From an uncultured Thiotrichales bacterium (GTDB lineage Bacteria > Pseudomonadota > Gammaproteobacteria > CAZUMV01): a stretch of DNA of 64,000 bases. The stretch spans positions 6-64,005 of the forward strand of contig CALIRD010000099.1 of the NCBI GenBank assembly GCA_938042355.1, read 5' to 3'. Shown one piece after another: positions 15,036 through 36,329 of the stretch. The notes under the pieces are model-generated. The model was not told the origin of the DNA. It worked only from the letters and a program-made list of their open reading frames with translations, and did no database searches. Numbering within the stretch: position 1 is the stretch's first letter; each line of letters starts with the position of its first letter. A program made the translations under genes and the position numbers.

Positions 15036-15037
15036 CG

Positions 15038-17817: not shown

Positions 17818-17837
17818 GTTCTTATTATTTATACCGG

Positions 17838-17851: not shown

Positions 17852-18134
17852 TTTCGGTAATGACTCTATGACCTGATTGTTATCGATGTTAATTGTTATA
17901 TACAAGTAATATGCCAATTTTCTATGAATGCAAAAAGTGAGGCATTTCCTCAATATTTTCGCACATTCATGCCTCTAATGTACCTTTTATAGTGTACAAA
18001 TTGTCCACTATTTGTTTTTCTGACGAACAATGTAGATGGAAATCGGTGGTTATATTTAAGACGATAGGAAAGCTTAATCGTTCATAATTTCATTGCATGA
18101 AAAAAAATTTGTGTTAGCAGTATTTCAGGCAAAT

Positions 18135-18986: not shown

Positions 18987-19043
18987 AGAATAGTATCAAA
19001 TTCTGAGCGGTAGAAGTTTACAGCTCGTAATCAATAATTATCG

Positions 19044-21083: not shown

Positions 21084-21214
21084 CTGTGAGCCTTCTGTTG
21101 GTTTTATTGCAAATATTAATCCAAATATAGCACTAAAGTACTACATATAAGAATGCCGTTTTTGGCATGTTTTGATGTTTAGTTATAAGCTTACACTATC
21201 CACTCGTACTTGAA

Positions 21215-21841
21215 TTGAGAATAACAAAAGTGACCGGAAACAGAATAATAATTTTAGACGATCATGCGGTTTTTTCAGAAAGTCTAAAGCTTGTTTTAGG
21301 TGATAATTTTCAGGTAACTGTTACGACATCCAGTAAGGAGCTATTCCTTCAGCTTGATAACGTAGAACATAATTTGTTGTTACTCGATTTAAATTTTCCA
21401 GATGACAATGGCTTCGCTATTTTTTCGGAGTTAAGGGCTCATAAACATCAGCTACCCGTATTACTGATTACCGCATCTTCGAGTGTCGCTTTGGTCAGAG
21501 ATAGCAGGCAATTAGGCTTCAATGGCTGTTTTCATAAGGCGGAACATCTAGACTCGCTACTAGAGGCAATTAATACGCTTTTGAGTGGTGGTGAATGGTG
21601 GCCAGATATTTCTCCATCCAAAAACACAGAAGGTATTCTAAAGCAACATGGATTAACTTCGCGTCAGTTTGATGTCTTGTCACTGATAGATAAGGGTTAT
21701 ACGAATTCTGATATTGCCGCTGCGTTGTACGTTTCTGAATCAACTGTAAAATCTCACATTACGGCATTATTTACACAGCTTGCAGTTAAAAATAGAACCA
21801 GCTGTTTGCGTACAGCACGCATGCTTGGACTGCTTAACTAA
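21215..21841 (+). CDS. Two-component response regulator, REC + LuxR-type HTH (NarL/FixJ family)
   Basis: Receiver motifs IIILDDH, LLLDLNFPDDNG and LLITAS. C-terminal LuxR HTH LSLIDKGYTNSDIAAALYVSESTVKSHITALFTQLAV. Start uncertain: TTG at 21215 or GTG at 21230. Confidence 0.8.
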   Translation: MRITKVTGNRIIILDDHAVFSESLKLVLGDNFQVTVTTSSKELFLQLDNVEHNLLLLDLNFPDDNGFAIFSELRAHKHQLPVLLITASSSVALVRDSRQLGFNGCFHKAEHLDSLLEAINTLLSGGEWWPDISPSKNTEGILKQHGLTSRQFDVLSLIDKGYTNSDIAAALYVSESTVKSHITALFTQLAVKNRTSCLRTARMLGLLN

Positions 21842-23558
21842 CAACAGTATGTAATCTTTCGATCGTTAACAGCAATTTATCCAAATTGATGGGTTTCGAC
21901 ATGAATTTTGTTCTTGCTGAGGATGAGCTTTCCCCTAGATCCGGTTTAACATCTCCGGAGACGAGGATTGCCGGTAAATCATGCTGATTCAATTTCGTTC
22001 TGACCATATCAATCACCTCTATCCCGTTTGAAGGTGGAGGTAAACGATAGTCAGAGATGACCAGGTCATATCCGGATGTTGAGGTGACGCAAGTTGTCAG
22101 TGCCGATTCCATGTCAAAGGCCGTACTCACCATGGCGCCTTTTTGCAATAGCAGATCAGCTAATACTGTTCGCGTCATGTCGTCATCTTCAATTAGCAGT
22201 ATTTGTTTGCCAGATAAATTTAAATCTACAGTGTTGGGCGAAATTGGTGCTGCCTCGATTGCTGTTGCAGTGGACTTTTCTACGAGTAGTTTCATTACGG
22301 TTCCACGACCTGGTCGAGATGAAACAGTTAGCTTATGTCCCAGCTGATCGGCAAGACGACGACTGATGGGTAAGCCCAGCCCAAGACCATCGCTTGTTGG
22401 TCTGGCTTTATTGTCTATCTGATAGAATTCCTCGAATATATGCTCAAGTTGATTTGCAGCTATGCCAATACCGGTGTCCCAAATTTCAATGCAAACATGG
22501 CTGTCCCAGTGTTCTCTGCAGGCAACTAATATACCTCCTTGTTCTGTATTTTTTACGGCATTACTCACCAGATTACTCAAGATTCTACCCAAGGCGACAT
22601 CATTCGAGAATACACTCTGTGTTGTAGGTCGAATCCTGAGTTCTAGATTTTTGGCGCGGCATTGTTCGAGATGTTCGACCAGAATCGTTTTAAATACCTC
22701 GTCAAGTGAGCAGTGATGCATCTTATAGCTCGTGGTGCCGGACTCGAGGCTGGAAATGTCCAGTAATGAGTCGAGTAGGTGATTTAATCTGCCCAGGGCA
22801 GTCTCGAGATTGTCCAGCAAAATCTGTGAACGTGAAGTTTGTGGCTGTGTAGCAAGACTGTTTGCGATCAAATTGAGGGAGTTGATTGGTTGTCTGAGGT
22901 CATGATTGGCAGCAGCGAAGAAGCGTGATTTTGACAGGTTTGATTGCTCGAGCTGCGCGATGATATTGAGATTTTTAAACTTGTAGCTAATGGTGTCCAG
23001 AGTAAGCTTGTTACTGGTTTTTCCATAAACACAAAGTCCAATAAAATAGACAAGTAGTGCAAGGCCTATACCAAGGTGTATGACTTCGCCAGATTTGAAT
23101 AACTTAAAAATTAATAAAAGCATCGCCGGGAAAATGAATGCATAAAAACCCTCCAGCCAGTAGGCGGTAGAAATGATCGAACCAAGCGAAATGAGTACGA
23201 CTAGTGAACTGATTATCGCAAAGGTAATGCCGTAGTTTGAGGTGAATATAAAGACACTCAAGCCCCAGCATGTCCCGGTTATCAAAGCGGTATAGGTATA
23301 GTATCTGCCCCAGCGAATGGTTTCTGCATCACTCCTCGGGCTCTTGTTAAATTCCTTGATCATCATCAATCGAAGTACGTATATGCCAATTAAAATGGCG
23401 AGCCAGACATAGCTAATGGCATTGATTGTGGCGAAGCTGCAAAAAAAGATTGTGATGGCAATCATCAGCTGAATGATGCTCACGTTCATGCGTTGAGAAA
23501 ATAATATTCGCACACCCTCAGCCACGAATTTATTGTCTGCTTTGTTGAACATCAACAT
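21834..23558 (-). CDS. Hybrid sensor histidine kinase (multi-TM sensor + HisKA + HATPase_c + C-terminal REC)
   Basis: About six N-terminal TM helices. H-box AANHDLRQPINSL. G-boxes DTGIGIA and GLGLGL. C-terminal receiver ILLIEDDDMTRTVLADLL...DLVISDYRLPP. Confidence 0.85.
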   Translation of the reverse strand: MLMFNKADNKFVAEGVRILFSQRMNVSIIQLMIAITIFFCSFATINAISYVWLAILIGIYVLRLMMIKEFNKSPRSDAETIRWGRYYTYTALITGTCWGLSVFIFTSNYGITFAIISSLVVLISLGSIISTAYWLEGFYAFIFPAMLLLIFKLFKSGEVIHLGIGLALLVYFIGLCVYGKTSNKLTLDTISYKFKNLNIIAQLEQSNLSKSRFFAAANHDLRQPINSLNLIANSLATQPQTSRSQILLDNLETALGRLNHLLDSLLDISSLESGTTSYKMHHCSLDEVFKTILVEHLEQCRAKNLELRIRPTTQSVFSNDVALGRILSNLVSNAVKNTEQGGILVACREHWDSHVCIEIWDTGIGIAANQLEHIFEEFYQIDNKARPTSDGLGLGLPISRRLADQLGHKLTVSSRPGRGTVMKLLVEKSTATAIEAAPISPNTVDLNLSGKQILLIEDDDMTRTVLADLLLQKGAMVSTAFDMESALTTCVTSTSGYDLVISDYRLPPPSNGIEVIDMVRTKLNQHDLPAILVSGDVKPDLGESSSSARTKFMSKPINLDKLLLTIERLHTVVS

Positions 23559-23866: not shown

Positions 23867-24877
23867 ATGACACGGTATTTATTAGAGAATGTCTTCGGCT
23901 CATCAGATTTGGATACTACTAAAAAGCCTAAAGTAGAGAATGAATCGGTTATAGATGAAATCGGTTATCTTCCCAGCGTCTATATGATTAGAAGGTTGGT
24001 CGGTCGCGACGATATTAGTTTCAAGTTGTTTCGTTATGCCAGGGCAGTCGAGGGATTACACACAGCAAGTCACGGTTTGATCGAAATTGAGTTAATCGAG
24101 TCTGGTCATGCCAGTGGTGGTTGCATTTCTTCGCAGTCGATTAAAGATGCGGATAAGCAGTTACTCTCCAGGCTGGATAATGAAATTAAAATAAATGCTG
24201 AACTTGTGTATTCAAAAGTTTCGAACAATAAAAATTCACAGCATGAAAAAATTTCTATTCCTCATGGCCAGCTCTATGCCAGAGCAAGTCAACAGACGGC
24301 GGTTATTTCAGAACAGACGCATGTCAACAAGCCTGTCTCACCAGTAGTTTATTCAGCCGTGCTTGATTGTGAGCTGGCAGAAGACTTGTGGAGTAGCTTT
24401 GAACAAGAAGATGTAACGCTTGAGCTCTCAATACATTGGTTGCTAACAGGGGAGGAGCGTGGTGTGCCTTTTCAACATGTAATCACGCAAGTCATACCAA
24501 TCGATATTTCAATGGCGGCACAGCGAAACTGTTTTCATAAATATGAGACGTGGGCAGACTTCGAGCATGATTACTCAGAACTGCATATCCAATGTTTTTC
24601 ATTGTTTAAAAATACTAATTCCGGTTTGTCTAATGTGGTCGTGGCAACTGACTTGAAGGATGCCGACACCACGATTAGCACACAGATCGTTGAGTTCAAT
24701 CAGCTTGATTCCGAGTCAACTAAAACTATACTTTTTCCAGAGTCAGCCAAGTTGCTAAAGCCATCTTTCTCGGTAACTACGACTTATTACTTTGACGACG
24801 GTACCAGTAAAGAAGTGGCTTCTTGGTCACATCAGCTGCGCTATTATGATGCCAGTCTTGAGTCAATTTCAGACTAG
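23867..24877 (+). CDS. Hypothetical protein, AT-rich orphan (no recognisable domain)
   Basis: 336-aa ORF preceded by RBS AAAGAGACAG. Visibly lower GC than its neighbours and preceded by a ~300-bp AT-rich spacer. No known motif recognised. Confidence 0.5.
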   Translation: MTRYLLENVFGSSDLDTTKKPKVENESVIDEIGYLPSVYMIRRLVGRDDISFKLFRYARAVEGLHTASHGLIEIELIESGHASGGCISSQSIKDADKQLLSRLDNEIKINAELVYSKVSNNKNSQHEKISIPHGQLYARASQQTAVISEQTHVNKPVSPVVYSAVLDCELAEDLWSSFEQEDVTLELSIHWLLTGEERGVPFQHVITQVIPIDISMAAQRNCFHKYETWADFEHDYSELHIQCFSLFKNTNSGLSNVVVATDLKDADTTISTQIVEFNQLDSESTKTILFPESAKLLKPSFSVTTTYYFDDGTSKEVASWSHQLRYYDASLESISD

Positions 24878-24881
24878 CGTT

Positions 24882-25652
24882 TTAATACTCTTCAAGTAAC
24901 TTACCAAAACCAGTTATTTGATCGTTGATGCCATTGGCTCTCAATGCATGCCAGTAGGTTGCTGTATTAATCGCGATAACGGGTTTGTCCAGCCATTTTT
25001 CTGCTTCTGCAGCAAGTCTGACCATTGAGAGGTTTGTACCAACCTGGCATATCGCGTCAATGTCATCGCCATTTAATTCCATGATTACTTTGCGCAGAGA
25101 ATCTTCACGAACCTGCGCAATGGCTGTCCAGCTGGGACATTGCAATGGAATGTCCCGGATCACTTCAATATCAAAATCGTTAACGTATTTTGTGACCTCT
25201 GCATTAGCCGAAGGGTAGTAGGGTGAGACGAATGCAATACGTTTGATATTTCCATAGGCCTGAATTGCGGAGACTAACGACTCGGAACCGATGCTCGAAT
25301 CCAGGCCAGATACGTCTTTGAGTTCTTTTTTGAATTTCTCGCCACCTGCTCGACCACCATAAAAAGTGACCGCTGACATACCCATGACCAGATAGTCCGG
25401 GTCACAAGCCAGTACGCCGCGTGCGGCCTGTTCAGTGAGCTTTCCAATCTCGGCAACACCAGCGCTAAATGTTTCATCAGAAATAGCCTGTGCATTGGCA
25501 TTCGGGATGCGGCTATAGTGATTGGTTACACCGGGTACACGCATATCATCGAAGTCCGGTTGTACCACTGTATTGGTAGCAGGGCCTATTACGCCAAACA
25601 GTTTTCTATAACCGAGCACATCCTGTTTGTGTTCAAATATTGATGAGTCCAT
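24882..25652 (-). CDS. Asp/Glu/hydantoin-racemase superfamily protein (maleate-isomerase/arylmalonate-decarboxylase-like)
   Basis: 256 aa. The two-cysteine-region layout and motifs such as VIGPATNTVVQPDF and AICQVGTNLSM resemble the maleate cis-trans isomerase/AMDase family. Confidence 0.6.
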   Translation of the reverse strand: MDSSIFEHKQDVLGYRKLFGVIGPATNTVVQPDFDDMRVPGVTNHYSRIPNANAQAISDETFSAGVAEIGKLTEQAARGVLACDPDYLVMGMSAVTFYGGRAGGEKFKKELKDVSGLDSSIGSESLVSAIQAYGNIKRIAFVSPYYPSANAEVTKYVNDFDIEVIRDIPLQCPSWTAIAQVREDSLRKVIMELNGDDIDAICQVGTNLSMVRLAAEAEKWLDKPVIAINTATYWHALRANGINDQITGFGKLLEEY

Positions 25653-25663
25653 TTTATGCTCCT

Positions 25664-26623
25664 CTAGCGTGTTTCCAGTGTCATAGTGTCAGACCAGCTT
25701 CCAGAATCAGCTTTGCGTTTTAACAGGAAGGCTGCCTTGTCATCGTCTTTGGCATAGGCGGAAAGAAACAGATTGGAAAGTGAAACAAATGATGCCAACG
25801 CTTCCGTCGCTGGCTTTGCATTCTCGAGGTTGAATCTACCCGTTAAGCCGCCAAAGTAGTGGTCAACATCTGTGCCAACGGTTAACCATTTTTCACCGGC
25901 AGGGCTCAACTCGTAGGCCGCTTTATGCATTTCCCATTCAGGGATGAAGTTTTCCAGTATATCGGCAGTGCCCGTTTGTAATAATAACGGTGTTGTCATT
26001 TGATCAAAGCTGTTTTTTTCAATGTAACCTGGAATCAAACCCGGTGGTGACATGGCGATTACTGCCTTAACGCCGGGGTTAGCCACCCTGATTTTGTTCT
26101 TGGTATTCATGTCAGTGGTGACTGCTCCAGCGACCGCCATAGCAGTAATCGCACCATATGAATGCCCGGACATAACCAGTTGTTCGGTGTTAACCTTGCG
26201 CGTCAGTTTCGAGATCTTGGCGATGATATTTTCCAGCTTATACGTGATGGTTCTCATATCTTCGAGACGCAACTTCCATTGCTGATCCTGCGTATAGGAT
26301 TTGTTTAACGGGTTTTTTGGCGAGTCTATATGTCGAATCGCAAGAATCAGGAACCCGGACTCTGCCCACGCATCGGTTACCCGGTCGTACATGTCATAAT
26401 CAGAAAACGCGCCATGCGAAAACAGAATTACTCCAACAGGATCTGGCTCTGAATCAGTCGGGTAGATCGCTCTAACGGGTACAGTTCGCCCTGTGCTCGT
26501 TTCCACAGTAATAACGGTGTGAGCAACACTGCCCTGGTCAATCTCCTTGGCAGGTTGTGAAGCGCAGCTCGTTAGAAGCAACAGGCTGAATAGTAATTGT
26601 AAGAGTGCGATGTGTTTGTGCAT
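25664..26623 (-). CDS. Alpha/beta-hydrolase lipoprotein (esterase/PAF-acetylhydrolase-like)
   Basis: Signal peptide with LLTSC lipobox. Nucleophile elbow MSGHSYGAI (GHSYG). Confidence 0.7.
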   Translation of the reverse strand: MHKHIALLQLLFSLLLLTSCASQPAKEIDQGSVAHTVITVETSTGRTVPVRAIYPTDSEPDPVGVILFSHGAFSDYDMYDRVTDAWAESGFLILAIRHIDSPKNPLNKSYTQDQQWKLRLEDMRTITYKLENIIAKISKLTRKVNTEQLVMSGHSYGAITAMAVAGAVTTDMNTKNKIRVANPGVKAVIAMSPPGLIPGYIEKNSFDQMTTPLLLQTGTADILENFIPEWEMHKAAYELSPAGEKWLTVGTDVDHYFGGLTGRFNLENAKPATEALASFVSLSNLFLSAYAKDDDKAAFLLKRKADSGSWSDTMTLETR

Positions 26624-26640
26624 AACTATTCCAAATGAAG

Positions 26641-26943
26641 TCAGGATGACAGGTCATGCAAGATGCGCTGCACCAGTTGTTCACGGCGTGCGGATTGCAG
26701 CGCTTGTAGAGTTTCATCGGCTTCGAAGTTTTCTATTTTGTCGCTACCGCCGAACCCGTGTTGTTCCGAGAGTTTTTCGTAAATATCCATTCGGTCTCTT
26801 AGTACTGAAATTTCCATCGCAAGACGAAGCACAACATCGACCACCTGATCCATGTTGGAAGTTGCAATGAACGTTGGTTTGGTGCGTTTGCTGTCGAGCA
26901 TCAAGTCAGCAACACTGTTGCTCGGGCTCTTATCATTACTCAT
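26641..26943 (-). CDS. Small protein 'A' (100 aa), member of a 4-copy paralogous family in this window; function unknown
   Basis: Its ATG overlaps the stop of the methyltransferase at 26940 (ATGA). Shares the core VVDVVLRLAMEISVLRDRMDIYEKLSEQHG...IENFEADE with the ORFs at 36354, 41947 and 60535. Confidence 0.6.
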   Translation of the reverse strand: MSNDKSPSNSVADLMLDSKRTKPTFIATSNMDQVVDVVLRLAMEISVLRDRMDIYEKLSEQHGFGGSDKIENFEADETLQALQSARREQLVQRILHDLSS

Positions 26944-28067
26944 GAGTTTACTTGCGCGCCAAACAGAAAATAACTGTTGTTACCGCCAGCAGCTTGATAG
27001 TCAGTGAAGCGTTCTTGCTCATCAAAACCGGCTGTCGCCAAAGCAGCATCGATATCGGTATCGACAAAGCCAGTCCAGAACGGTTCGCCATTATTAACCA
27101 CTTGCCAGTCATTAGTTACCTGAGAAGGTATGTCTATTCGGTTCGGTTGGTAGGGAACATCTATATTGAAAAAGACACCACCAGGTGCGATCAAGCGTTT
27201 TACCTCTTGCATAATCTCCAACAGCTTTTCATCCCATGTTTCATGGAAGAGAATTTGACTGACAATGAGATCAAAGGAATTGTCTTCAAAGCCGGTGTCA
27301 GCCGCATCCAGTTGATGAAAATGCAGGCTGAGCTGACTATCCTCGGCCATCGCATGTGCGCAGCGCATAAAGGGGCCGGATAGATCAAGTCCGTGGACTT
27401 CAGCCTCAGGCCAGTACTCTTTAAGGCCGCGTGTCAGTGCGCCGATACCACAGCCTAAATCAAGAATTCGTGTGGGTTGGGTGTCAGGGAATCTCTGGGT
27501 GATCAGCTGAGCCATGGCGTGTCCGCCAAATGTATCCTTGGTTTTTCCAGAACTGAAGCCTTTGGCAGCCGTGTAGAGTTGAATGGTCCCATAATAAAGC
27601 AGGGGGGCGGTCAGTCCATTTTTCTCTGAATCAAAAAAGTAGCCACCCGGTTGACGATGTATTTCTGTGCTGCCGATCGGTTCGGGCAAAACAAGATCGG
27701 GATTCAGGGTCAAACTTCCCAGTTTTTTATCGTTGTTATCAATTGCTTTCGCTTTTTCTTCGGCATGCTCGAGAATTCTGTCTACAGTATCTCCAACCGT
27801 CTCCCATAGCAGGTCCTGTGAGGTATAAACGGCAGAACCCCAAAGCTGATAGAGATGTTCTTTTTCAAACAGACTTTTGGCTTCGTCTCGGGATGCAGGT
27901 GGTTTACCGTGTTGTTCGAGGTATTTCGGTAGTAATTTATCCTCATACAAGGCATGAATTTGTTGCTCCAGTTTGCCATTAACATATTTCTTCAAGCTGC
28001 CGACAAAGGCTTGTCTGGATGCTTCATCTTTATTCGGTTTGTATGTCTTTGTAAACGCTGTAGTCAT
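26940..28067 (-). CDS. Class-I SAM-dependent methyltransferase with long N-terminal extension (paralog MT1)
   Basis: Motif I RILDLGCGIGALT. Acidic loop HGLDLS. Post-II region HFHQLDAADTGFEDNSFDLIVSQILFHE. Motif RLIAPGG. C-terminal NGEPFW. N-terminal QPGGYF element. Confidence 0.8.
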   Translation of the reverse strand: MTTAFTKTYKPNKDEASRQAFVGSLKKYVNGKLEQQIHALYEDKLLPKYLEQHGKPPASRDEAKSLFEKEHLYQLWGSAVYTSQDLLWETVGDTVDRILEHAEEKAKAIDNNDKKLGSLTLNPDLVLPEPIGSTEIHRQPGGYFFDSEKNGLTAPLLYYGTIQLYTAAKGFSSGKTKDTFGGHAMAQLITQRFPDTQPTRILDLGCGIGALTRGLKEYWPEAEVHGLDLSGPFMRCAHAMAEDSQLSLHFHQLDAADTGFEDNSFDLIVSQILFHETWDEKLLEIMQEVKRLIAPGGVFFNIDVPYQPNRIDIPSQVTNDWQVVNNGEPFWTGFVDTDIDAALATAGFDEQERFTDYQAAGGNNSYFLFGAQVNS

Positions 28068-28072
28068 ATTGT

Positions 28073-29611
28073 TTAACTCATGCCCAGTTTAGGAATGAAA
28101 AGCGACTGTGTCGGTAACATAGTGGTTTTTTCCTCCGTAAATAATTCAATTGAGGCGTGTAAACCATCGCGACCCACGCCGGATTGTTTATAGCCACCAA
28201 ATGGCGCTCGCAGGTCCCTGGTCAGCGGTGTATTGACCCAGACGGTGCCGGCTTTGATCTCACGGCTGCATTTCATCACAGTAGGCAAGTCATTCGACCA
28301 GACATAGCTTACCAGTCCAAAGTCTGAATCGTTCGCGATAGTGATAGCTTCTTCGAGATCGCTGTACCTTTGCAGTGCTACAAATGGGCCAAATATTTCT
28401 TCCTGACAAACTCGTGAGCTATTGTCGGCCAGCACGGCAGTGGGTTCAAAATAGTAGCCGGATGAAAATCCATCAGCGGCTTTGCCGCCCACTAATATTT
28501 CTGCGCCTTCTGATTTTGCTATGTCAACATACGACAACACTTTTTCATAATGCGAGGCGAACGCGAGTGGTCCGACTTCTACATCGCTATCAAAAGGATT
28601 GCCGACTTTTACATTTGCCATACGCTGTGTAAATTTATCGATAAACTCATCGGCGATAGAGTCTTGCAGCAAGATTCTTGAGCCAGCGAGACATTGCTCG
28701 CCATTACCAGCAAGGATCGCTATCAGTGAGCCGTCAATAGCGTCATCGAGATTAGCATCTGCGGTAACAATATTGGCGGATTTTCCACCAAGCTCCATGC
28801 CCACTTTTTTCAGGGTTTTGGAGGCAGATGACATAATGGTTTTACCGGTACCGGTGCCGCCAACAAATCCAATCACGTCGACGTCAGGGTGTTCTACCAA
28901 CGATTGTCCGGTGATGTGGCCACGACCATTGACGAGGTTTACCACGCCCGGTGGAATGCCCGCATCATTAATTATCTCTACAAATCTTTGCAGGGTATAT
29001 GGCGAGTATTCAGAGGCTTTGATTACAACCGTGTTACCGGTAGCCAACGCCGCAGCCAGTTTCATTGATACCAGCACAGTTGGAGCATTCCACGGGGTTA
29101 GCAGGGCACATACGCCTACCGGTTCATGCGTCACAATGGAAAGATAATTTCTGGTTTGTGTATAGGCTTCGCCTCCCAGGGTGCCAGCAACTTCAATAAA
29201 AAATTCAAAATTCTCTACCGTTCTTGGCATGTGCATGGCTTGTAAGCCAGCGACTGGAATACCGACCTCGAATGCCTGTATGGTCGCTAATTCCTGAGCA
29301 TGCTCGCGTATGGCGTCACGGGCTTTATAAAGTATGGCTTTCCTGTCGGTGTGGGACAGATATTGCCAGTCGGTGTGATCAAATGCATGTCGTGCAGCAG
29401 CAACTGCCGCATTGACCTCGCTTTCATCACTTTCTTGAACGGTATAGGTTTCTTCTGCGTTGATTGGACAGACTGACTGAAGTTTAAATGCTGTCGTGTC
29501 ATGTCCCTGCAAACTTCCGTCGATTATTGCCGTGACGGTGTCGGGTAATTGAATCTGGTGTTGGTCGGTGAGATCTTTGACATTGGGTATCTCAAACTGA
29601 TTGTCGGTCAT
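28073..29611 (-). CDS. Aldehyde dehydrogenase (NAD(P)+)
   Basis: ELGGKSANIV and GEQCLAGSRILL catalytic motifs in a 512-aa product. Confidence 0.9.
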   Translation of the reverse strand: MTDNQFEIPNVKDLTDQHQIQLPDTVTAIIDGSLQGHDTTAFKLQSVCPINAEETYTVQESDESEVNAAVAAARHAFDHTDWQYLSHTDRKAILYKARDAIREHAQELATIQAFEVGIPVAGLQAMHMPRTVENFEFFIEVAGTLGGEAYTQTRNYLSIVTHEPVGVCALLTPWNAPTVLVSMKLAAALATGNTVVIKASEYSPYTLQRFVEIINDAGIPPGVVNLVNGRGHITGQSLVEHPDVDVIGFVGGTGTGKTIMSSASKTLKKVGMELGGKSANIVTADANLDDAIDGSLIAILAGNGEQCLAGSRILLQDSIADEFIDKFTQRMANVKVGNPFDSDVEVGPLAFASHYEKVLSYVDIAKSEGAEILVGGKAADGFSSGYYFEPTAVLADNSSRVCQEEIFGPFVALQRYSDLEEAITIANDSDFGLVSYVWSNDLPTVMKCSREIKAGTVWVNTPLTRDLRAPFGGYKQSGVGRDGLHASIELFTEEKTTMLPTQSLFIPKLGMS

Positions 29612-29622
29612 GCCGGTATCCG

Positions 29623-30816
29623 TTATACGATTGCTGTAGCATCCGCCAGACTACTGTGCATTGACTGTTGTAGCAAATACTCTCTGCGTTTATCGGCGTT
29701 CTCATGCATCTCGCGCATCATGGCTAAGCGCATTTTTTGGCCTTGTTCTTCACCATGCTCTAGTATGGCTTTGTTCTGTTTGGTCTGTGCTTGGATGAAA
29801 TTATGGGTAATAGTTCGACGCTGTCGATCGTATAATTCAAATAACGCATCATCATGGCCATCTGTCAAGCAGGTGAGTATCTTGTCAGTCAGGTTCCAGG
29901 CATCATGAATGCCGCTGTTCATACCAAATCCACCCAGCGGGTTATTCAAGTGTGCTGCATCTCCCACCAAAAACACACGGCCGTGACTGAAGTTTTTAGC
30001 AACTCTTTGATGTACGCGGTAAATGGTTCGGTGTTCAGTTTCAACTGAGCTGTCATTAATCAAGCGATCAAATACACCTTCCTTATACGTGTCTGACAAC
30101 AAATGTTCATCATTATCAGACTCTTTTGCTGGCACCAGGATGCGCCAAACGCTGGGTACCCGAAGCAACACCATCCATTCGCTGGGATCAGATACATAAT
30201 TTACGTAAGCAATGTCGGGTATAAAATCCGCTAATTCCTTTTTGGTGGACAGACATAGGAATTTCTCAGGATAGGTGAAGCCTTCGAACTCAACTCCAAG
30301 CCACTTGCGCACAGTTGAGCTGCCGCCATCCGCAGCGATCAAATAATCCGCTTTAAGTGTGGTGATATCGATGCCCGTTTCAAATGAAGCGGTCACACCA
30401 TTTTCTTGTTGTTCAAAATGAACCAGTCGATGATCGAACAATACTTCAGCATTTTCATGTGCATCCAGTTTTCCGGCTACCAGTGATGCCATAACATGCT
30501 GTTCACATTGAACGCGGTAAGGAAATTCGGTGACGTCATCAATTTCAGCCAGGTCAAATTCCAGTATTTCACCAGTACTGCGTTCACGAAAATGATACAG
30601 AGGTGCAACCAGTCCTCTCTCTATGATCTCTTCCACCAAGCCGACTTCATGCAGCATTTCTAAAGTAGGGGAATGAAAGGTAGAGGCGCGAAGATCTTGG
30701 GCACAATTCATCCCCGCTTCACAAAGAGTCACTTTAACGCCGGCAAGCGCCAGACGATAGGCAGCAAGGGTTCCAACAGGACCTCCTCCGACAACAATGA
30801 CGTGCTTGTTCTTCAA
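29623..30816 (-). CDS. FAD-dependent aromatic-ring monooxygenase (UbiH/salicylate-hydroxylase family)
   Basis: N-terminal VIVVGGGPVGTLAAYRLALAG (GxGxxG) and LVGDAAHLNNPLGGFGMNSGIHDAWNL (DG/GD motifs). TTG start. Confidence 0.85.
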   Translation of the reverse strand: MKNKHVIVVGGGPVGTLAAYRLALAGVKVTLCEAGMNCAQDLRASTFHSPTLEMLHEVGLVEEIIERGLVAPLYHFRERSTGEILEFDLAEIDDVTEFPYRVQCEQHVMASLVAGKLDAHENAEVLFDHRLVHFEQQENGVTASFETGIDITTLKADYLIAADGGSSTVRKWLGVEFEGFTYPEKFLCLSTKKELADFIPDIAYVNYVSDPSEWMVLLRVPSVWRILVPAKESDNDEHLLSDTYKEGVFDRLINDSSVETEHRTIYRVHQRVAKNFSHGRVFLVGDAAHLNNPLGGFGMNSGIHDAWNLTDKILTCLTDGHDDALFELYDRQRRTITHNFIQAQTKQNKAILEHGEEQGQKMRLAMMREMHENADKRREYLLQQSMHSSLADATAIV

Positions 30817-30989
30817 ATCTTGAATATCCCATTAAACTTTAGAACATCGTACCGGAGCTGACATTTGAGGTGCTGTTATATACGATTTAGGTTTCATCTG
30901 GTGAAATCTCAGTGTACTCTTGTGTTCTATGTCTTGGAGTGATTATTTTTACTGTGTAATTTATCCACTCTAAACGACGGGTTACCAAT

Positions 30990-31658
30990 ATGATGACGAA
31001 AGAAAAATTAACCGTGCGAATACATGAGCTACTGGCGGGTCATGATTTTACAACGGTGCTGCCAGAAGCTAAAAGTACTGAGTTGAAAAAGACTCTGGAT
31101 GAGCTAATTCCATTCTCGCCTGTACCTGACCCAATGGACAACCAGCATGCAGCAGAGGGTGTATGGGAGTGTAATTACGCCAACTTCGGGGTTAAGCATG
31201 CTGCTGAGCAACCGATGTTACACAGGTCAAGTCTGGCTAAACAAAGCTGGAATAATTTACCCAATATTCCGGCTGATATGATTGATATCCGGCAGGAAAT
31301 CCTCGTTAGTACCAAGGCCTACAACAATGTCGTAAAGTTACGTAGTACAACGTCTGATTGTGAAGCTGTGGTAGTGCTCTACGGGACTTATTCGGGTGAT
31401 GATGACAATCGTACTCGATACTCGGTTGCATTCTCGGAGGTTTCACTGGAGCCCATGAACGGTGACAGTGAGGCTGAGCTCCGTAGCGGCTTCGGTATTG
31501 ATGACGATGTGCCACTTCGTACCACGTTTAACCCGCCAAAACTTCATTCAGATATTGTTTATGTAGATGACAGGCTAAGAATCAACTATGGCAGTCTTGG
31601 CGGGTATTATGTCAATACCAAAATTGATGAAGCTGGATATTCGATAGACTACCAATGA
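30990..31658 (+). CDS. Hypothetical protein (222 aa)
   Basis: Clean ORF immediately upstream of the IclR gene. No recognisable motif. Confidence 0.45.
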   Translation: MMTKEKLTVRIHELLAGHDFTTVLPEAKSTELKKTLDELIPFSPVPDPMDNQHAAEGVWECNYANFGVKHAAEQPMLHRSSLAKQSWNNLPNIPADMIDIRQEILVSTKAYNNVVKLRSTTSDCEAVVVLYGTYSGDDDNRTRYSVAFSEVSLEPMNGDSEAELRSGFGIDDDVPLRTTFNPPKLHSDIVYVDDRLRINYGSLGGYYVNTKIDEAGYSIDYQ

Positions 31659-31667: not shown

Positions 31668-32489
31668 GTGCCAACTGATCCGGAAGCTCGCTCGGAGTTA
31701 ACCATACGAGCATTAAGCAGAGGCTTGCGATTGCTTTCTGTATTGAATTCTCGAGGTGAAGCCAGTCTGGCTGACCTTGCTAAAGAAACAGGTTTGCCCA
31801 GACCCACAGCTTATCGTTTGCTGCAGAGTTTACTAGCAGAAAATTACATAACCAAAGATGAGGCGTTAAGTACCTACCATCCTGCACCGCGCTGCTGTTC
31901 ATTGAGTAGCGGTTTCATGGAAGATGCCTGGTTACTGGAGCACACACAAGAAGATTTAAACAAGCTGGGTGATGAGTTGATCTGGCCAATTTCTATAGCG
32001 ACTAATGCAGGCACACGCATGATCGTTCGCAAAAACACAGATATTGAAAGCCCTCTGGCAGTACGTAAATTTATGCCTGGTACCTCTCTGGCTTTGCTTG
32101 AAAGTGCTTCCGGAAAACTTTTTCTGGCCAAATGCACTGCTGCCCGCAGAGCAAAATTGCTGAATATTATTTCGGCATCTTCCGATCCGATGCTCAAGAC
32201 GGAAAGCGATCGCGCCAGACTTGAGAAGCTGCTTGATAAAATTCGGTTAGATGGTTATGCCACCCATACGAAACCTGGTAAATACAGTGAAGCACGAGCG
32301 ATTGCTGTGCCAATTAAAGTAGAAAAAAAAGTAATCGCCACGTTAACCATTAGATATGCCAAAACTGCAGTCAGCAACAAGCGCGCTGAAAAAGAATTTT
32401 TACCTTTGATGTTTGAAACAGCGCGCAAGATTGGCGTAAAAATTAGTGCTGACCAGCGGGCGCTGCCTGCGTTTGGATTGGGTGAGTGA
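31668..32489 (+). CDS. IclR-family transcriptional regulator
   Basis: HTH ASLADLAKETGLPRPTAYRLLQSL followed by an IclR effector domain. GTG start. Confidence 0.8.
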   Translation: MPTDPEARSELTIRALSRGLRLLSVLNSRGEASLADLAKETGLPRPTAYRLLQSLLAENYITKDEALSTYHPAPRCCSLSSGFMEDAWLLEHTQEDLNKLGDELIWPISIATNAGTRMIVRKNTDIESPLAVRKFMPGTSLALLESASGKLFLAKCTAARRAKLLNIISASSDPMLKTESDRARLEKLLDKIRLDGYATHTKPGKYSEARAIAVPIKVEKKVIATLTIRYAKTAVSNKRAEKEFLPLMFETARKIGVKISADQRALPAFGLGE

Positions 32490-32496: not shown

Positions 32497-33681
32497 TTAT
32501 TTGGCATTCTTCAGCACCAGATTGACCAGAATTGAATCATCAAAACTCATGCTAACCTGGCCAGTTCTCACGATAACCAAGTCTTGAGACGGAACAATAT
32601 AGACACGTTGTCCGCCAAAGCCATCAAAGAATACAACATCATCAGCCAGGTAAGGCGCACTATGAGTCACCGCAATTGCAGTGTTAGGTCCATATTCGCG
32701 GCTGCCATCTTCTGGCGCATCAAGCCACACACCCAGTCCGTACAAACGATTTGATTCAGCTGGTGTGGTGAGTATCTTAATGGCTTCTGAAGGCACGACT
32801 TGCTTTCCGTATAATTGCCCTTCATTTTTTATCAGCAGACCAATTTTCAGCCAGTCACCCGCACTGGCTTGCATGCCTGCATAAAATCGCGGAATGCCAT
32901 TGTCCTGACCACTCGAAAGCCAGGCATCTCCAGCACCAATTGGTCGCCAGATTTTTTCAGATAAATACTCGGCATAACTTGTATTGAAGGCTTGGTCTAT
33001 ATATCGGCGAATGACTGCACCGGCAACCTGATAGTTGATAGTGGCATATTCAAAGCCCAGTCCAGCATCATCGACAGGATTTGAAAGCGCTGCTTCTTCA
33101 ATGTCATCACCAATCAAAATCTCCATGGTGCGGAAGTCAGGATTAGCCATTGATACAACTTCAAGCGGGGTGGTGTGTTGCAACAGCTCCCTGAGCGTTA
33201 TTTCACCGCGGACATCCTCTTTCCATTCAACCAGTACTTTTGAGACTGGATCATCCAAGGCTAGAATTCCTTCAGCATGCAATGTTGCCGCCATCAGGCC
33301 GGTGATGGATTTGTTCATGGAGTAGGAAGCTGTAACCGCATTACGATCCATGCCATCGGCATAATGTTCAAATTGGATCTTGCCATTTTTCCAGACCAAC
33401 AGGCTGAGTCCATTTTCCTGATCGTGATAATCAATCAGGCTGATTTTTGTTGCTTCGCTTAATTCTGGCGTTTCTGCCACTAATAACTTTGAGTCGTCAA
33501 GATTTCCTGCTACTGGAGTTACCGTGGTTTCCCATTCGCGAACATTATCTGTTCGCATGTTACCCATGTTGGCCAGATTGCTAACCATGGTCCAGTTCAT
33601 TGCGGAAAAAATGGCAATAGCAATAATAGCCAGTAGCAGCAGCACAAAGATGATTTTCACGATTTTTTTAAAGAATTTCAT
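32497..33681 (-). CDS. Beta-lactamase-fold serine hydrolase (esterase/peptidase), N-terminal membrane anchor
   Basis: SxxK motif SMNKS, plus a C-terminal PYLADDVVFFDGFGGQRVYIVPSQDLVIVRTG shared with the next gene. Confidence 0.8.
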   Translation of the reverse strand: MKFFKKIVKIIFVLLLLAIIAIAIFSAMNWTMVSNLANMGNMRTDNVREWETTVTPVAGNLDDSKLLVAETPELSEATKISLIDYHDQENGLSLLVWKNGKIQFEHYADGMDRNAVTASYSMNKSITGLMAATLHAEGILALDDPVSKVLVEWKEDVRGEITLRELLQHTTPLEVVSMANPDFRTMEILIGDDIEEAALSNPVDDAGLGFEYATINYQVAGAVIRRYIDQAFNTSYAEYLSEKIWRPIGAGDAWLSSGQDNGIPRFYAGMQASAGDWLKIGLLIKNEGQLYGKQVVPSEAIKILTTPAESNRLYGLGVWLDAPEDGSREYGPNTAIAVTHSAPYLADDVVFFDGFGGQRVYIVPSQDLVIVRTGQVSMSFDDSILVNLVLKNAK

Positions 33682-33694: not shown

Positions 33695-34948
33695 TCAATT
33701 CAAACCGCGTAGTATGGTGTTAGGCAGATAGCTGTTATCCCATTCTGGCTCACTCCTCGCTCGGCCAAGTGCTGTTCGAAGAATGACTAGTTCTTTTGAT
33801 GGAATAATGTAAACCACCTGATTTCTATTGCCATCAAATAACACAAGATCATCGGCCAGGTAGGGTTCACTATGATAGACCTTGAGATTGTCTGGTATGG
33901 AATCTGGATTGGCGTAACCTCGTCTCTCAATGTACGGTTGACCGATGTAAATTCCCATACCGCTATGTTTGTTATTAGGGCTTGGTGAGCTGATTCGTTC
34001 TACATAGCCTTCCGGTAAGATTCTTGTGCCCTCCCAAATACCATCCTGCATAACCAGAATTGCCAGCCTCAAATAGGTTTCTGCAGGAAGTAATATGCAA
34101 CAACCCGAGTGTGCAGTTCCACCTGGTCGGTTAACAAAAACCTTACCACCTTGAGCTCCCAACGGTTTGAACAGCTCGTCGCTTAACCAGTTATGGTAAC
34201 GCTGGCTGGTAGCACGTTCCAGAATTAAGGCAACTATTTCGCCGTTAGCATTCGAGTACTCATATCGTGATCCTGGTTCATCTACCAGAGGGTACTCATG
34301 CAATATAACTTCAGTATGTCGTGGATGCAGGTAGGCACGATTTAAAATATCATCTGCGGTTGTGGCCAGCGCCTGTGGCAACAAGCCACTACTCATATTA
34401 AGAAAATGATTGAGTTGAATTTTGCTTTTGTTGGTGTTTTTCCATTCAGGCAAATGATTGGTAACCGGAATATTCAAGTTTTTGATGAAGCCTTTATTAA
34501 TTGCGGTACCCACAGCAGCGACCGATACGGGCTTGGCCAGCGAGTAGGAGGTTATCAATGAGTCGGCAGTAATGTCGCCAAAGTATTTTTCAGCGACAAT
34601 TTCTCCTTTATGCCAGACAATCAATGCCGAAGAATTATTTACTTCAGCATAATTAAAGGCATTTTCCATGGCTGGTTGTGATATCGAGGTGCTGTTGAGG
34701 TTACGTGGGAGCGGCTGATAGTCACTCGTGCCAGAAACAGGCTCGAGATTATCATAGGGAGGGACGTTGCCAGTAGTTCTGATTGCTTCGGCTAGTGCAT
34801 TAAAGCGTTCTAAATATTTGGCTTCGTCAGCAGCGCTGAAAGGAGGTTTGTTTGGGTCATTAACCGGAGTACTGTTGCAGGCGGCTAGTAAAGTGAAAGC
34901 AACAATTATCAGACATAAGGCGACGCTTGGAATTTCAGTCTTGTTCAT
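33695..34948 (-). CDS. Beta-lactamase-fold serine hydrolase, lipoprotein (tandem paralog of the previous gene)
   Basis: Lipobox LLAACNS. SxxK motif SLAKP. C-terminal PYLADDLVLFDGNRNQVVYIIPSKELVILRT nearly identical in pattern to the gene at 32497. RBS AGGAGCCC. Confidence 0.8.
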   Translation of the reverse strand: MNKTEIPSVALCLIIVAFTLLAACNSTPVNDPNKPPFSAADEAKYLERFNALAEAIRTTGNVPPYDNLEPVSGTSDYQPLPRNLNSTSISQPAMENAFNYAEVNNSSALIVWHKGEIVAEKYFGDITADSLITSYSLAKPVSVAAVGTAINKGFIKNLNIPVTNHLPEWKNTNKSKIQLNHFLNMSSGLLPQALATTADDILNRAYLHPRHTEVILHEYPLVDEPGSRYEYSNANGEIVALILERATSQRYHNWLSDELFKPLGAQGGKVFVNRPGGTAHSGCCILLPAETYLRLAILVMQDGIWEGTRILPEGYVERISSPSPNNKHSGMGIYIGQPYIERRGYANPDSIPDNLKVYHSEPYLADDLVLFDGNRNQVVYIIPSKELVILRTALGRARSEPEWDNSYLPNTILRGLN

Positions 34949-35126: not shown

Positions 35127-36329
35127 GTGCTGAACATATTCCAACAAGCCGAGCACGCTATGCTGCCAAAGATGACAGCTGCAGAACGCTCGCGACAAGA
35201 ATTCGCCAAGTCATTCAAGCAACATATACAGGCTAATTTTCTGCCGGCAGTGACGTCGGCATATTTCAAGCGTGCTGTCCCGGCTTATGCTGAAGAAAAA
35301 GGTGAGGCGCCTACTGATTACCGAGAAGCGAGAACAGCCTTTCAAGATGATCCTTTATTTCAATTTTATTTATCTTCGCAACGCGTAAGTCAGGAGTTAA
35401 TGTGGTTCGGAGTGAACGAATCGATTACCCGGCAACTGGATGAGTTGAAACAACAGGCGGAACAATTACCGGCTACCGGCGGCACACTGGAAATCGATGA
35501 TGATTTCACGGTACCTAAATATGTTTCATCTCTGGATATACACTGCATGCCTGGTGGCTATGTAGGTAAGGATGGAAGTGACCCGCTTCATGCAGGTGCG
35601 CTGTATGATCGTGGTGTCTACTTATATGCGATGGGGTATATGGGGCCTAACAATGATGATATGGGTCGCTCCGTATGTAATTACATAACCCGTAACCTCC
35701 TTGATTTCAAACCAATGAAAATTCTGGATATTGGTTGCACTGTTGGGCATTCAACCTTGCCTTATGCCGAGCTGTTTCCCAACGCAGAGGTTACTGCAAT
35801 TGATGTCGCAGGTTCTTGTGTAACCTATGCACATTACCGGGCAGAAGCGATGGGCTTACCTGTGCATTTCAAGCAGAGAAATGCCGAAGCTACCGGTTTT
35901 GAAGATGAGAGCTTTGATCTGGTTGTCTCACATATACTTCTGCATGAAACATCAAAAAAGGCGATGCCTAAAATCTTCAATGAGTGTCATCGTATATTGA
36001 AACCAGGCGGCTACATGATTCATGCCGATCTGCCACCATTCGAAAATATGGATGCCTATACACAGCTGATACTGGATAACGAAACCTGGTACAACAATGA
36101 GCCATTCTGGAGTGCAATGAGAGAAATGGATCAGATTGAATTGGCGAAAAAAGCCGGCTTTGCAGAAGAAGATATATTCTTTGATACCGCAGGTATGGCC
36201 ATCATGGAACAAGCCAGACAGGCTGAGCTGGATGTGGCTGATGCGGTTGAAGAACTCGGAGAGCGAGAGTTTACTGCTGGTGAGTATGCTCCTGGCGGAG
36301 GCTGGGAAGTACTGGTCGGTAAGAAATGA
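35127..36329 (+). CDS. Class-I SAM-dependent methyltransferase with long N-terminal extension (paralog MT2)
   Basis: KILDIGCTVGHST. TAIDVAG. HFKQRNAEATGFEDESFDLVVSHILLHE. RILKPGG. NNEPFW. N-terminal MPGGYVG. GTG start at 35127, or alternatively ATG at ~35160. Confidence 0.8.
   Translation: MLNIFQQAEHAMLPKMTAAERSRQEFAKSFKQHIQANFLPAVTSAYFKRAVPAYAEEKGEAPTDYREARTAFQDDPLFQFYLSSQRVSQELMWFGVNESITRQLDELKQQAEQLPATGGTLEIDDDFTVPKYVSSLDIHCMPGGYVGKDGSDPLHAGALYDRGVYLYAMGYMGPNNDDMGRSVCNYITRNLLDFKPMKILDIGCTVGHSTLPYAELFPNAEVTAIDVAGSCVTYAHYRAEAMGLPVHFKQRNAEATGFEDESFDLVVSHILLHETSKKAMPKIFNECHRILKPGGYMIHADLPPFENMDAYTQLILDNETWYNNEPFWSAMREMDQIELAKKAGFAEEDIFFDTAGMAIMEQARQAELDVADAVEELGEREFTAGEYAPGGGWEVLVGKK

Follow-up and report, generated by a model that had tools for sequence, protein, structure and literature searches.

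Why are a flavin monooxygenase, an aldehyde dehydrogenase (ALDH), a methyltransferase (MT), a small protein, a lipoprotein hydrolase and a racemase-family protein encoded one after the other in an uncultured Thiotrichales bacterium (Gammaproteobacteria; CAZUMV01), and do they carry out one pathway? The six genes, named here in the order of transcription FMO1, ALDH1, MT1, A1, the lipoprotein hydrolase gene and rac, lie on the minus strand of a stretch of 64,000 nucleotides (contig CALIRD010000099.1 of assembly GCA_938042355.1, positions 6 to 64,005), which is called the window below. On balance, we favor the view that they belong to a catabolic operon, the conserved core of which would be an aldehyde dehydrogenase together with a heteromeric S-adenosylmethionine (SAM)-dependent methyltransferase. 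The enzyme superfamilies involved are ordinary; the novelty is the module made of the MT and its small partner, which is tightly coupled and unusual for catabolic clusters.

Organization of the predicted operon

All six open reading frames (ORFs) proposed in the initial annotation were recovered at their coordinates (Table 1) by an ORF check and by translation, and each translation was matched residue for residue in a public protein collection, without product names. The intergenic spacings are 11, 5, -4, 17 and 11 nt, in agreement with the gaps of at most 17 nt or overlaps described before; the -4 nt spacing is the ATGA overlap of the MT1 stop with the A1 start, which can be read in the sequence. 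Relatives were surveyed by tblastn with 23 window proteins against 82 related loci, the set to which the counts of loci below refer. The same six genes in the same order were found on a contig of a Thiotrichales metagenome-assembled genome (L004) with an MT 69% identical to MT1, and another locus (L003, MT 87% identical) carries the first five in order up to the end of its contig; the full order is limited to L004, plus L003 as far as it extends. In Woeseiaceae, Halieaceae, Hellea/Caulobacterales, Erythrobacter and Novosphingobium, subsets of the operon genes are grouped as well, with their order shuffled. Between 23.5 and 33 kb, 11 terminator-like hairpins were found versus 8.8 +/- 3.3 in shuffled sequence, i.e. 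no enrichment. From the short gaps, the order kept in relatives and a hairpin count no higher than in shuffled sequence, the six genes are predicted to form a genuine operon, and their earlier description as one tightly packed, transcription-unit-like block is upheld.

On the downstream side, a plus-strand ORF of 336 aa (23867-24877) converges with the operon; its stop lies 4 nt from that of rac, which leaves no space for a terminator. This ORF matches nothing in Pfam or NCBIfam, and homologs are missing from all 82 related loci. A search of both strands of the whole window with Rfam gave no family at gathering score and no SAM riboswitch before any of the four MT genes, and a riboswitch or other structured RNA was therefore rejected.

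MT1 and A1 form a conserved gene pair

A1 had been listed as one more operon gene beside the pathway enzymes; it is instead the conserved, translationally coupled partner of the methyltransferase. The window holds three such pairs, MT1-A1, MT2-A2 and MT3-A3, with small ORFs of 92-113 aa that are related to A1. The three MTs are 23-34% identical pairwise over their full length, including the N-terminal region (34% for MT2 versus MT1, with 21% for A2 versus A1), and MT3 and A3 also overlap by ATGA. Beyond the window, a small-family ORF lies directly downstream on the same strand of 83 of the 105 MT genes collected from 84 sources. Of these 83 pairs, 61 offer a start that overlaps the MT stop (-4 in 49, -1 in 12) and 79 have a start within 25 nt, where the start nearest the MT stop was chosen, a choice that favors short gaps. 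In a mirror-tree comparison, pairwise identities among the MTs go hand in hand with those among their partners (r = 0.83), which indicates co-divergence. Moreover, A1-, A2- and A3-type partners are mostly found behind MT1-, MT2- and MT3-type enzymes, respectively, and since partner types track MT types in this way, the pair appears to have been duplicated as a unit. MT and small protein are thus a conserved, translationally coupled and co-diverging pair. MT1-A1 would most simply be a two-subunit enzyme.

No Pfam or NCBIfam family was found for A1. Its AlphaFold2 model (predicted local distance difference test, pLDDT, 72) has a disordered N-terminus and a helical hairpin formed by residues 31-62 and 77-99, and a search for fold relatives gave none at E <= 0.001. 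The family is large, with 1,248 clusters at 50% identity in a profile search; the best 150 of the listed matches are all 80-240 aa long. Natural MT-small fusions, sought as evidence of interaction, are absent from these 150 best matches. Strongly conserved polar positions of A1 are P23, D32, E44, R49-D50-R51, D53, E56, R83 and R87, and the family carries an N-terminal basic motif, K-G-K-R-P-x-F-F-D-D-P.

Five distant members of the small family were also sampled. One follows an MT with a 4-nt overlap, and two are on contigs too short to judge. In a freshwater metagenome (L087:2545-4066) the small protein precedes the MT, so that the order is reversed and the genes still adjoin; a metallo-beta-lactamase-fold gene lies upstream and a cupin-HTH regulator downstream. 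The fifth, a 194-aa protein from a TARA marine metagenome (L088:1655-2239) with its match at residues 88-167, stands beside an acyl-CoA dehydrogenase with no MT nearby; therefore, the helical domain is not strictly limited to MT pairs.

Family and structure of MT1

The methyltransferase call was borne out. The recognizable core of MT1 (Methyltransf_25/11, residues 183-305) scores 78.4 bits with Methyltransf_25 at a cutoff of 27, motif I (DLGCGIGA203) is present and D228 is invariant, as in class I enzymes; MT2, MT3 and MT4, a further family member of the window, retain G-x-(T/S)-x-G variants of motif I. The AlphaFold2 model (pLDDT 89, predicted template modeling score 0.90) has a seven-stranded core and two N-terminal helices (13-53 and 71-110). 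No sequence or profile match to any solved structure was found for the N-terminal 180 residues, and Foldseek returned generic MT matches alone (TMq <= 0.46), among them the phenolic/aromatic O- and C-MTs NovO, CouO, SibL and ASMT. The family comprises 935 homologs, full-length without exception, with about 53% identity and generic names throughout; in species-representative genomes, a degenerate-pattern scan found at least 590 relatives. They are carried by, among others, Thiotrichales, Steroidobacteraceae, Woeseiaceae, Halieaceae, Sphingomonadales, Rhodospirillaceae, Hellea and sponge-associated Gammaproteobacteria.

As a single sequence, MT1 has carboxyl O-MTs as its best neighbors of known chemistry (BioC, Tam, Mtf2, LahSB and CysG/BelI). 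The best PDB match of the single sequence is LahSB, which methylates a peptide according to the title of its entry. The best NCBIfam match is BioC (TIGR02072), at 66.5 bits over residues 183-299 against a cutoff of 184.95, and MT1 is thus not a BioC by this cutoff. Residues 189-308 match CysG/BelI with 41 bits as a single sequence and 58 bits with the family profile, and in the HMMER alignment the CysG metal ligands H122-H123 fall on H275-E276 of MT1. Both residues are invariant in an alignment of 18 family sequences including MT2 and MT3, as are among others H137, D303 and E328-P-x-W, and an equivalent H-E pair is present in MT4. The alignment of H275-E276 with the CysG ligands may be a lead toward a carboxyl-MT; it is not a test. 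Reading the chemistry from the nearest neighbors was given up: the single sequence leads to carboxyl MTs and the family profile to N-MTs, and because all matches cover just the generic core, the chemistry is unreadable from similarity.

FMO1, ALDH1 and rac

FMO1 was rightly called a flavin monooxygenase (PF01494, FAD_binding_3, 198.7 bits). The GxGxxG, DG and GD motifs of group A flavin-dependent aromatic hydroxylases are present in a single FAD_binding_3 domain (GGGPVG10, DGGSSTVR163 and GDAAH285). Its best solved relatives are PnpA (6ain, 171 bits) and HspB (7da9, 152 bits), and it stays under every NCBIfam equivalog cutoff. Orthologs with 51-67% identity occur in 15 of the 82 loci, rac being usually directly next; rac itself is found in 11 loci, usually right after FMO1.

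The assignment of ALDH1 was equally sound (PF00171, 517 bits), with the superfamily motifs ELGGK273, the catalytic Cys307 in GEQCLAGSR, and EEIFGP404. Its top NCBIfam model is HpaE, at 496 bits against a cutoff of 638, so that no equivalog cutoff is reached; betaine-aldehyde and aminobutyraldehyde dehydrogenases come second and third. The top PDB entries, 4go3/4go4 (378 bits), were deposited as putative gamma-hydroxymuconic semialdehyde dehydrogenase, and other ALDH types score similarly. ALDH1-like genes are present in 36 of the 82 loci, about 22 of them being orthologs at 50% identity or more, and ALDH1 directly precedes MT1 both in the window and in L003, L004, L017, L020, L024 and L036. 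Taking all MT pairs together, an ALDH lies within 3 kb in 33/82 loci and a flavoenzyme in 11/82.

For rac, the earlier assignment to the racemase family stood as regards family and fold (Amdase PF17645, 59.6 bits, cutoff 25.9) and failed as regards canonical catalysis. The protein matches the EutA model TIGR02990 over its full length with 53.7 bits (cutoff 318) and the NCBIfam model arylmal_decarb with 54 bits (cutoff 225). In HMMER alignments, Cys200 of Iso, the maleate isomerase of P. putida S16, and Cys188 of AMDase both fall on the Gly of QVGTNLS in rac, and the position of AMDase Gly74, a Cys in racemases, is Gly in VMGMSAVTF. Both stretches are invariant in all 11 rac orthologs (60-66% identical), whose sole invariant Cys is elsewhere, in L-x-C-x-x-W. 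The two Cys of Asp/Glu racemase superfamily enzymes are thus missing. AMDase is recognized by G74 and C188, the T75-S76 dioxyanion hole and the motif LMGTSLSF (PMC4996985); rac has the equivalent of G74, a Gly in place of C188, and VMGMSAVTF instead of LMGTSLSF. A role as canonical maleate isomerase, racemase or AMDase was rejected because both catalytic Cys positions are Gly, and the isomerization step once proposed for rac falls with it, the two Gly being kept in every ortholog. On this sequence evidence, rac is a distinct subfamily that would be unable to use canonical thiol chemistry.

Hydrolases predicted to be exported

The lipoprotein hydrolase call also held (Pfam Chlorophyllase, 29.6 bits, cutoff 26; Hydrolase_4, 27.5 bits, cutoff 27). 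In MHKHIALLQLLFSLLLLTSC, a lipobox (LTSC) is found at residue 17 of the hydrolase and a GHSYG nucleophile elbow at 153, the marks of a lipoprotein alpha/beta-hydrolase. A search for sequence relatives in the PDB gave none. Among the related loci its homologs are confined to L003 and L004, both from Thiotrichales, and the protein is probably a lineage-specific extracytoplasmic accessory. An alpha/beta-hydrolase is the commonest gene directly behind an MT-small pair, in 13 of the 48 pairs with a same-strand gene starting at most 200 nt downstream. These 13 hydrolases belong to three unrelated families, and 12 have Tat and/or lipoprotein signals. A cytoplasmic MT pair followed by a hydrolase with predicted export is thus a conserved architecture, of which the lipoprotein hydrolase of the window appears to be the local version. 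Hydrolysis as one step among cytoplasmic reactions, as had been suggested, is ruled out for a hydrolase that is an exported lipoprotein.

Further along the window, the beta-lactamase-fold serine hydrolases blac1 and blac2 are, as their sequences show them, predicted extracytoplasmic proteins, and this pair recurs in 8/82 loci. Their equivalents are fused into one protein of about 800 aa in three Woeseiaceae-type loci (L022:6369-8801, L041:13869-16286 and L070:12785-15172), which suggests that blac1 and blac2 work as a pair.

The operon within a larger gene set

The operon was first seen as self-contained; it is one piece of a larger conserved set that extends over about 25-47 kb of the window (Table 1). 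The intergenic region upstream of FMO1 is near-identical in L003 and patchily conserved in L004, with one sigma-70-like site on the plus strand (30858-30886). On its other side, u222 taken alone scores 19.3 bits with PF04755, below the cutoff of 22; family membership comes through its orthologs, of which 11/11 aligned match PF04755 (best E = 1.4e-11), and the family profile matches the FBN5 structure 9jwr (4e-4). u222 is present in 16/82 loci, with an MFS_2/GPH transporter gene directly after it wherever the locus extends far enough. The next gene encodes an IclR-family regulator, nearest to PRK09834 in NCBIfam (155 bits, below cutoff) and with homologs in 19/82 loci; from its divergent position, it probably controls the operon.

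Two further modules contain the other MT-small pairs. MT2-A2-FMO2 is syntenic in L003, and a sodium:solute symporter gene on the minus strand (37910-39325) converges with FMO2, the 3' ends overlapping by 14 nt. The MT3-A3 type is kept at 36-46% identity in about 14 loci. Next to this module, the ICL/PEP-mutase-family lyase has as top PDB matches 4iqd, dimethylmalate lyase 3fa3 and petal death protein 1zlp (170-175 bits); a PEP mutase or phosphonate role was rejected given far better scores with methylisocitrate and dimethylmalate lyases. The lyase is found in 9/82 loci, directly behind MT1-A1 in L040, L041 and L046, and FADb2 adjoins MT3-A3 in L043 and L077. ALDH1 (52-68% identity), FMO1-rac, u222-MFS_2, the lyase, the beta-lactamase-fold pair and IclR co-occur in shuffled order in at least five distant lineages. 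Their company is of a catabolic type, with IclR, LysR and GntR regulators, TonB receptors, GPH and SSF transporters and exported hydrolases, and the loci of other lineages add PuuE-like deacetylases, isochorismatase-family amidases, M24 hydrolases (DoeA-like in some), P450 and TonB receptors.

A PuuE-like protein of the polysaccharide-deacetylase family (about 302 aa) follows FMO1-rac in L022:15066-15974, L028:18083-20004, L040, L041 and L046, and in Congregibacter an isochorismatase-family amidase is also found there; neither protein was found at 20-50 kb of the window. This hints that FMO1-rac feed an amide- or ureide-opening step in the lineages with the deacetylase.

The fourth MT-family gene, MT4 (58397-59446, minus strand, 349 aa), has no small partner. 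It is followed after 4 nt by a VAO/GlcD-type FAD_binding_4 oxidase (56798-58393), then by two FAD_binding_3 monooxygenases (55626-56795 and 54186-55616) and an SdsA1-type alkyl sulfatase (52148-54244), and a LysR regulator (59627-60538) is divergent from this group. The region 52148-60538 has the look of a further catabolic operon, with a member of this MT family at its center. Outside the window, plasmid pJE1 of Sphingomonas sp. JE1 (L085; NZ_KM017071, 33478-38216) carries a 409-aa MT and an adjoining 119-aa hypothetical protein whose start coordinate is the end coordinate of the MT, together with an FADb2-type flavoprotein, a VAO-type oxidase, a Zn-dehydrogenase, hydantoinase A/B and SSADH. 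Novosphingobium plasmids and chromids hold 3-6 full-length copies of the MT family each.

The region upstream of the catabolic genes (9977-23558) encodes a gamma-glutamyltranspeptidase, FdhD, an M13 peptidase, a three-gene RND efflux system (11835-17850), a LuxR-type response regulator (21215-21841) and an NahK/ErcS-like hybrid histidine kinase (21834-23558). Nothing was found that ties these genes to the operon.

Table 1. Features of the operon and of the linked gene set in the window
Feature	Position	Strand	Remarks
rac, Amdase/EutA-like protein, Asp/Glu-racemase superfamily	24882-25652	-	256 aa
Lipoprotein alpha/beta-hydrolase, predicted exported	25664-26623	-	319 aa
A1, small helical partner of MT1	26641-26943	-	100 aa; ATGA overlap with MT1 stop
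MT1, class I SAM-dependent methyltransferase with N-terminal two-helix hairpin	26940-28067	-	375 aa
ALDH1, NAD(P)-dependent aldehyde dehydrogenase	28073-29611	-	512 aa
FMO1, group A flavin monooxygenase	29623-30816	-	397 aa; TTG start; first operon gene
Divergent promoter region, FMO1/u222-IclR	30817-30989		173-nt intergenic region
u222, PAP_fibrillin lipocalin-type protein, cytoplasmic	30990-31658	+	assigned by ortholog profile
IclR-family regulator	31668-32489	+	HTH_IclR + IclR_C
blac1, beta-lactamase-fold serine hydrolase	32497-33681	-	PF00144; SxxK; N-terminal membrane anchor
blac2, beta-lactamase-fold serine hydrolase	33695-34948	-	PF00144; SxxK; lipobox LAAC21
MT2	35127-36329	+	second module
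A2	36354-36695	+	second module
FMO2, FAD_binding_3	36730-37923	+	second module; closest 3-hydroxybenzoate 6-monooxygenase, 251 bits, cutoff 459
GPH/MFS_2 transporter	39556-40902	+	third module
MT3	40892-41950	+	third module
A3	41947-42225	+	third module; ATGA overlap
abh2, cytoplasmic alpha/beta-hydrolase	42230-43051	+	third module
ICL/PEP-mutase-family lyase (alkylmalate-lyase family)	43071-43940	-	linked, putative lower-pathway gene
FADb2, FAD_binding_2 flavoprotein	43944-45344	-	nearest soluble flavocytochrome-c-type reductases, TcuA
ALDH2	45406-47034	+	linked, putative lower-pathway gene

Discussion

The initial annotation saw in the six genes a complete-looking mini-pathway that would hydroxylate, methylate, oxidize, hydrolyze and isomerize its substrate. 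This is unsupported, given the partner role of A1, the Cys-less rac, the exported hydrolase, the larger gene set and the lack of any recognized ring-cleavage enzyme. The best reading of the data is that this gene set of marine and sediment Pseudomonadota serves to degrade a hydroxylated aromatic or cyclic compound derived from ester- or amide-linked material. Exported hydrolases would free the monomer outside the cytoplasm; it would enter through the GPH/MFS_2 transporter, and the cytoplasmic fibrillin-type protein might hold a hydrophobic ligand. FMO1 would perform a para- or ipso-type hydroxylation of an aromatic or hydroxylated cyclic intermediate, and ALDH1 would convert an aldehyde intermediate to the carboxylate. 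MT1-A1 with SAM would then methylate an oxygen of the ALDH1 product, possibly with a metal at His275-Glu276. The favored target would be one carboxyl of a dicarboxylic acid, where the methyl group would tell the two ends apart or mask a reactive group; we put forward this carboxyl-O-methylation step only tentatively. Finally, rac, the alkylmalate-lyase-family enzyme and the fumarate-reductase-type flavoprotein might take a substituted C4-dicarboxylate toward central metabolism. This dicarboxylate theme is proposed because the relatives of rac, the lyase and FADb2 are expected to act on substituted C4-diacids.

Several observations weigh against a catabolic operon of this kind. No substrate was recognized from the genes, and no protein of the operon or gene of the set reaches any curated equivalog cutoff. 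PnpA- and gamma-hydroxymuconic semialdehyde dehydrogenase-type enzymes act alongside a dioxygenase, and no match to a ring-cleaving dioxygenase (PnpCD/HapCD/LinE, NicX/Hpo), a maleylacetate reductase or a maleamate amidase was obtained when ORFs of at least 150 aa at 19-64 kb were scanned with Pfam and NCBIfam; a novel ring-cleaving enzyme may be among the window proteins without family assignment. SAM-dependent methylation is costly for a high-flux catabolic route. Many genomes have the MT pair alone or with an ALDH alone, so that its role may be independent of the pathway. A conserved IclR operator was not retained as a candidate, as no inverted repeat was found in 30817-30989 and the conservation in L004 is patchy. 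Regarding the carboxyl step, the top PDB matches of the family profile are phosphoethanolamine N-methyltransferases (74 and 65 bits) and not carboxyl MTs, all matches of the MTs to known structures span only the generic SAM core, the third CysG ligand (D191) falls outside the alignable region, and the candidates for its place, D303 and E328, are invariant and unplaced. Moreover, with 12 of the 13 hydrolases behind MT-small pairs exported, they cannot simply cleave a methyl ester inside the cell, which weakens a cycle of the BioC/BioH type.

Other explanations have to be considered. MT-small pairs might methylate the phenolic hydroxyls made by neighboring hydroxylases, either to stabilize or detoxify an autoxidizable hydroquinone, catechol or halophenol or to direct the next hydroxylation, as in ubiquinone-type chemistry. 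PnpA and HspB, the best solved relatives of FMO1, yield hydroquinone-type products, and every MT of the window is near a flavoenzyme: MT1 with FMO1, MT2-A2 before FMO2, MT3-A3 near FADb2, and MT4 before the VAO-type oxidase and the two FAD_binding_3 proteins. The order MT, small protein, FAD oxidoreductase on pJE1 and the Foldseek neighbors NovO, CouO, SibL and ASMT fit this as well. We nevertheless consider phenolic methylation rather unlikely: across the related loci, the pairs have a flavoenzyme within 3 kb far less widely than an ALDH (11 versus 33 loci), many pairs have no hydroxylase nearby, and the MT is devoid of the PF00891-type dimerization and cap domain of classical phenolic O-MTs.

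Within the carboxyl-methylation hypothesis, a more specific version is that the MT-small pair is a new class of two-subunit SAM methyltransferase placing a transient methyl ester on the carboxylate made by the ALDH. The neutral ester would cross the inner membrane and be cleaved by the co-encoded exported (Tat/lipoprotein) hydrolase, or it would mask one end of a dicarboxylate for ordinary catabolic enzymes. We regard this as speculative and on present evidence unlikely.

N-methylation toward a betaine-type compound seems improbable. Here ALDH1 would turn an amino-aldehyde into an amino acid whose nitrogen is methylated by the MT paralogs, to give a compatible solute or a quaternary leaving group. 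Such a scheme would account for the profile matches to phosphoethanolamine N-methyltransferases, for the second and third NCBIfam matches of ALDH1 and for the presence of three to four MT paralogs in the window. Those profile matches, however, are confined to the generic SAM core, and the paralogs are 23-34% identical, each with its own partner and neighborhood, which suggests different substrates and not successive methylation. The context is also catabolic (IclR, LysR, exported hydrolases, lyase, hydroxylases, TonB receptors), with no osmoregulated transporter or amine-forming enzyme seen.

It is a little less probable still that the pair is regulatory, the MT methylating its own partner as a reversible switch, or the two sensing a ligand and modulating the neighboring catabolic genes. 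On the surface of the small protein many acidic and basic positions are conserved, its conserved basic N-terminal tail could reach into an active site, LahSB is a peptide methylase, and the pair is often alone or inserted as a portable module in many different catabolic clusters. However, neither protein has a DNA-binding or signaling domain, the hydrolases behind the pair are exported and would be unable to demethylate a cytoplasmic protein, and an ALDH as neighbor would rather be expected for a metabolic step. Mere adjacency of unrelated short operons or recently juxtaposed genes, to which the lineage-specific lipoprotein hydrolase, the highly variable gene order and the convergent neighbor without homologs in related loci might point, is very improbable in view of the short gaps with a start/stop overlap, of the six-gene order kept in a relative with a 69% identical MT, and of the repeated co-occurrence of the components across distant taxa despite shuffling, a classical signature of functional linkage.

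The operon can be compared with several known systems. CysG and BelI (PDB 9FCD, 9FCE) serve in cystargolide and belactosin biosynthesis; they depend on SAM and Ca2+ and methylate 3-alkylmalate at its C1 carboxyl, with a His122-His123-Asp191 metal site (PMC11408123). MT1 shares with them a Methyltransf_25-type class I core, its invariant H275-E276 align to H122-H123 of CysG, and the window has an alkylmalate-lyase-family enzyme, recalling the 3-alkylmalate substrate. In contrast to MT1, CysG/BelI are about 230 aa long and biosynthetic, without the 180-residue N-terminal hairpin region and without a small partner, and the similarity is limited to the generic core, in which Asp191 is not alignable. 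As in the BioC/BioH system of biotin synthesis, where a methyl ester serves as a mask, a class I SAM MT is found with an alpha/beta-hydrolase; unlike that system, MT1 scores far under the BioC cutoff, there is no acyl carrier protein or fatty-acid synthesis context, and the hydrolases behind the pairs are nearly all exported.

The pnp cluster of Pseudomonas sp. WBC-3 (PnpA, PnpE) and the nic2 cluster of P. putida S16 (HspB, Sapd, Iso, Nfo) resemble the operon in that FMO1 is nearest to PnpA/HspB and ALDH1 to 4GO3/4GO4. The nic2 cluster carries a maleate isomerase-family protein and an alpha/beta-hydrolase, and so does the operon. However, identities to these relatives are low (171 bits for FMO1 and 378 bits for ALDH1), there was no recognizable dioxygenase for hydroquinone or 2,5-dihydroxypyridine and no recognizable benzoquinone reductase, maleylacetate reductase or maleamate amidase, rac lacks both catalytic Cys, the operon hydrolase is exported, and neither known cluster has a methyltransferase. 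A complete pnp-type hydroquinone pathway was rejected because no dioxygenase or reductase was found, as was homarine/trigonelline-type catabolism, since the published homABCDER operon has no methyltransferase and another enzyme set. Regarding rac, the full-length match to the EutA model of ectoine/hydroxyectoine utilization and the match to the Amdase family are likenesses, and some related loci carry DoeA-like M24 hydrolases; in contrast to EutA, the score is far below 318 and EutB, EutC, DoeB and an ectoine transporter are absent, and in contrast to AMDase, C188 and the LMGTSLSF motif are missing.

Trm112-activated class I MTs provide a parallel in concept alone, as an MT with a separately encoded small non-catalytic partner, on which MT1 would depend in the case of A1. 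Trm112 is a zinc-knuckle alpha/beta protein that serves tRNA, rRNA and protein MTs, whereas A1 is a predicted helical hairpin with no detectable fold or sequence relative. A literature search brought up no work on pJE1, bacterial fibrillins or a cluster of MT, maleate isomerase and FMO.

SAM-dependent methyltransferases are, to our knowledge, rare in catabolic operons, and we know of none that requires a dedicated small helical partner. The MT and its partner are a widespread, unannotated two-gene module, repeatedly linked with aldehyde dehydrogenases, flavin hydroxylases and exported hydrolases. Other uncharacterized families with clear genomic handles are the Cys-less AMDase-fold subfamily and the pair of bacterial fibrillin and GPH transporter. 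Cultured carriers exist, namely Novosphingobium profundi, N. resinovorum (pSA1), Sphingobium sp. Leaf26 and Sphingomonas sp. JE1 (pJE1). If the transient ester proved true, hundreds of Pseudomonadota from the sea, sediments, freshwater and sponges would carry, in the form of a portable module, a protecting-group, prodrug-like chemistry that works across the membrane and serves bacterial catabolism or detoxification. Identification of the substrate would annotate thousands of gene pairs, and could show what part methylation plays when marine organic matter is degraded or detoxified.

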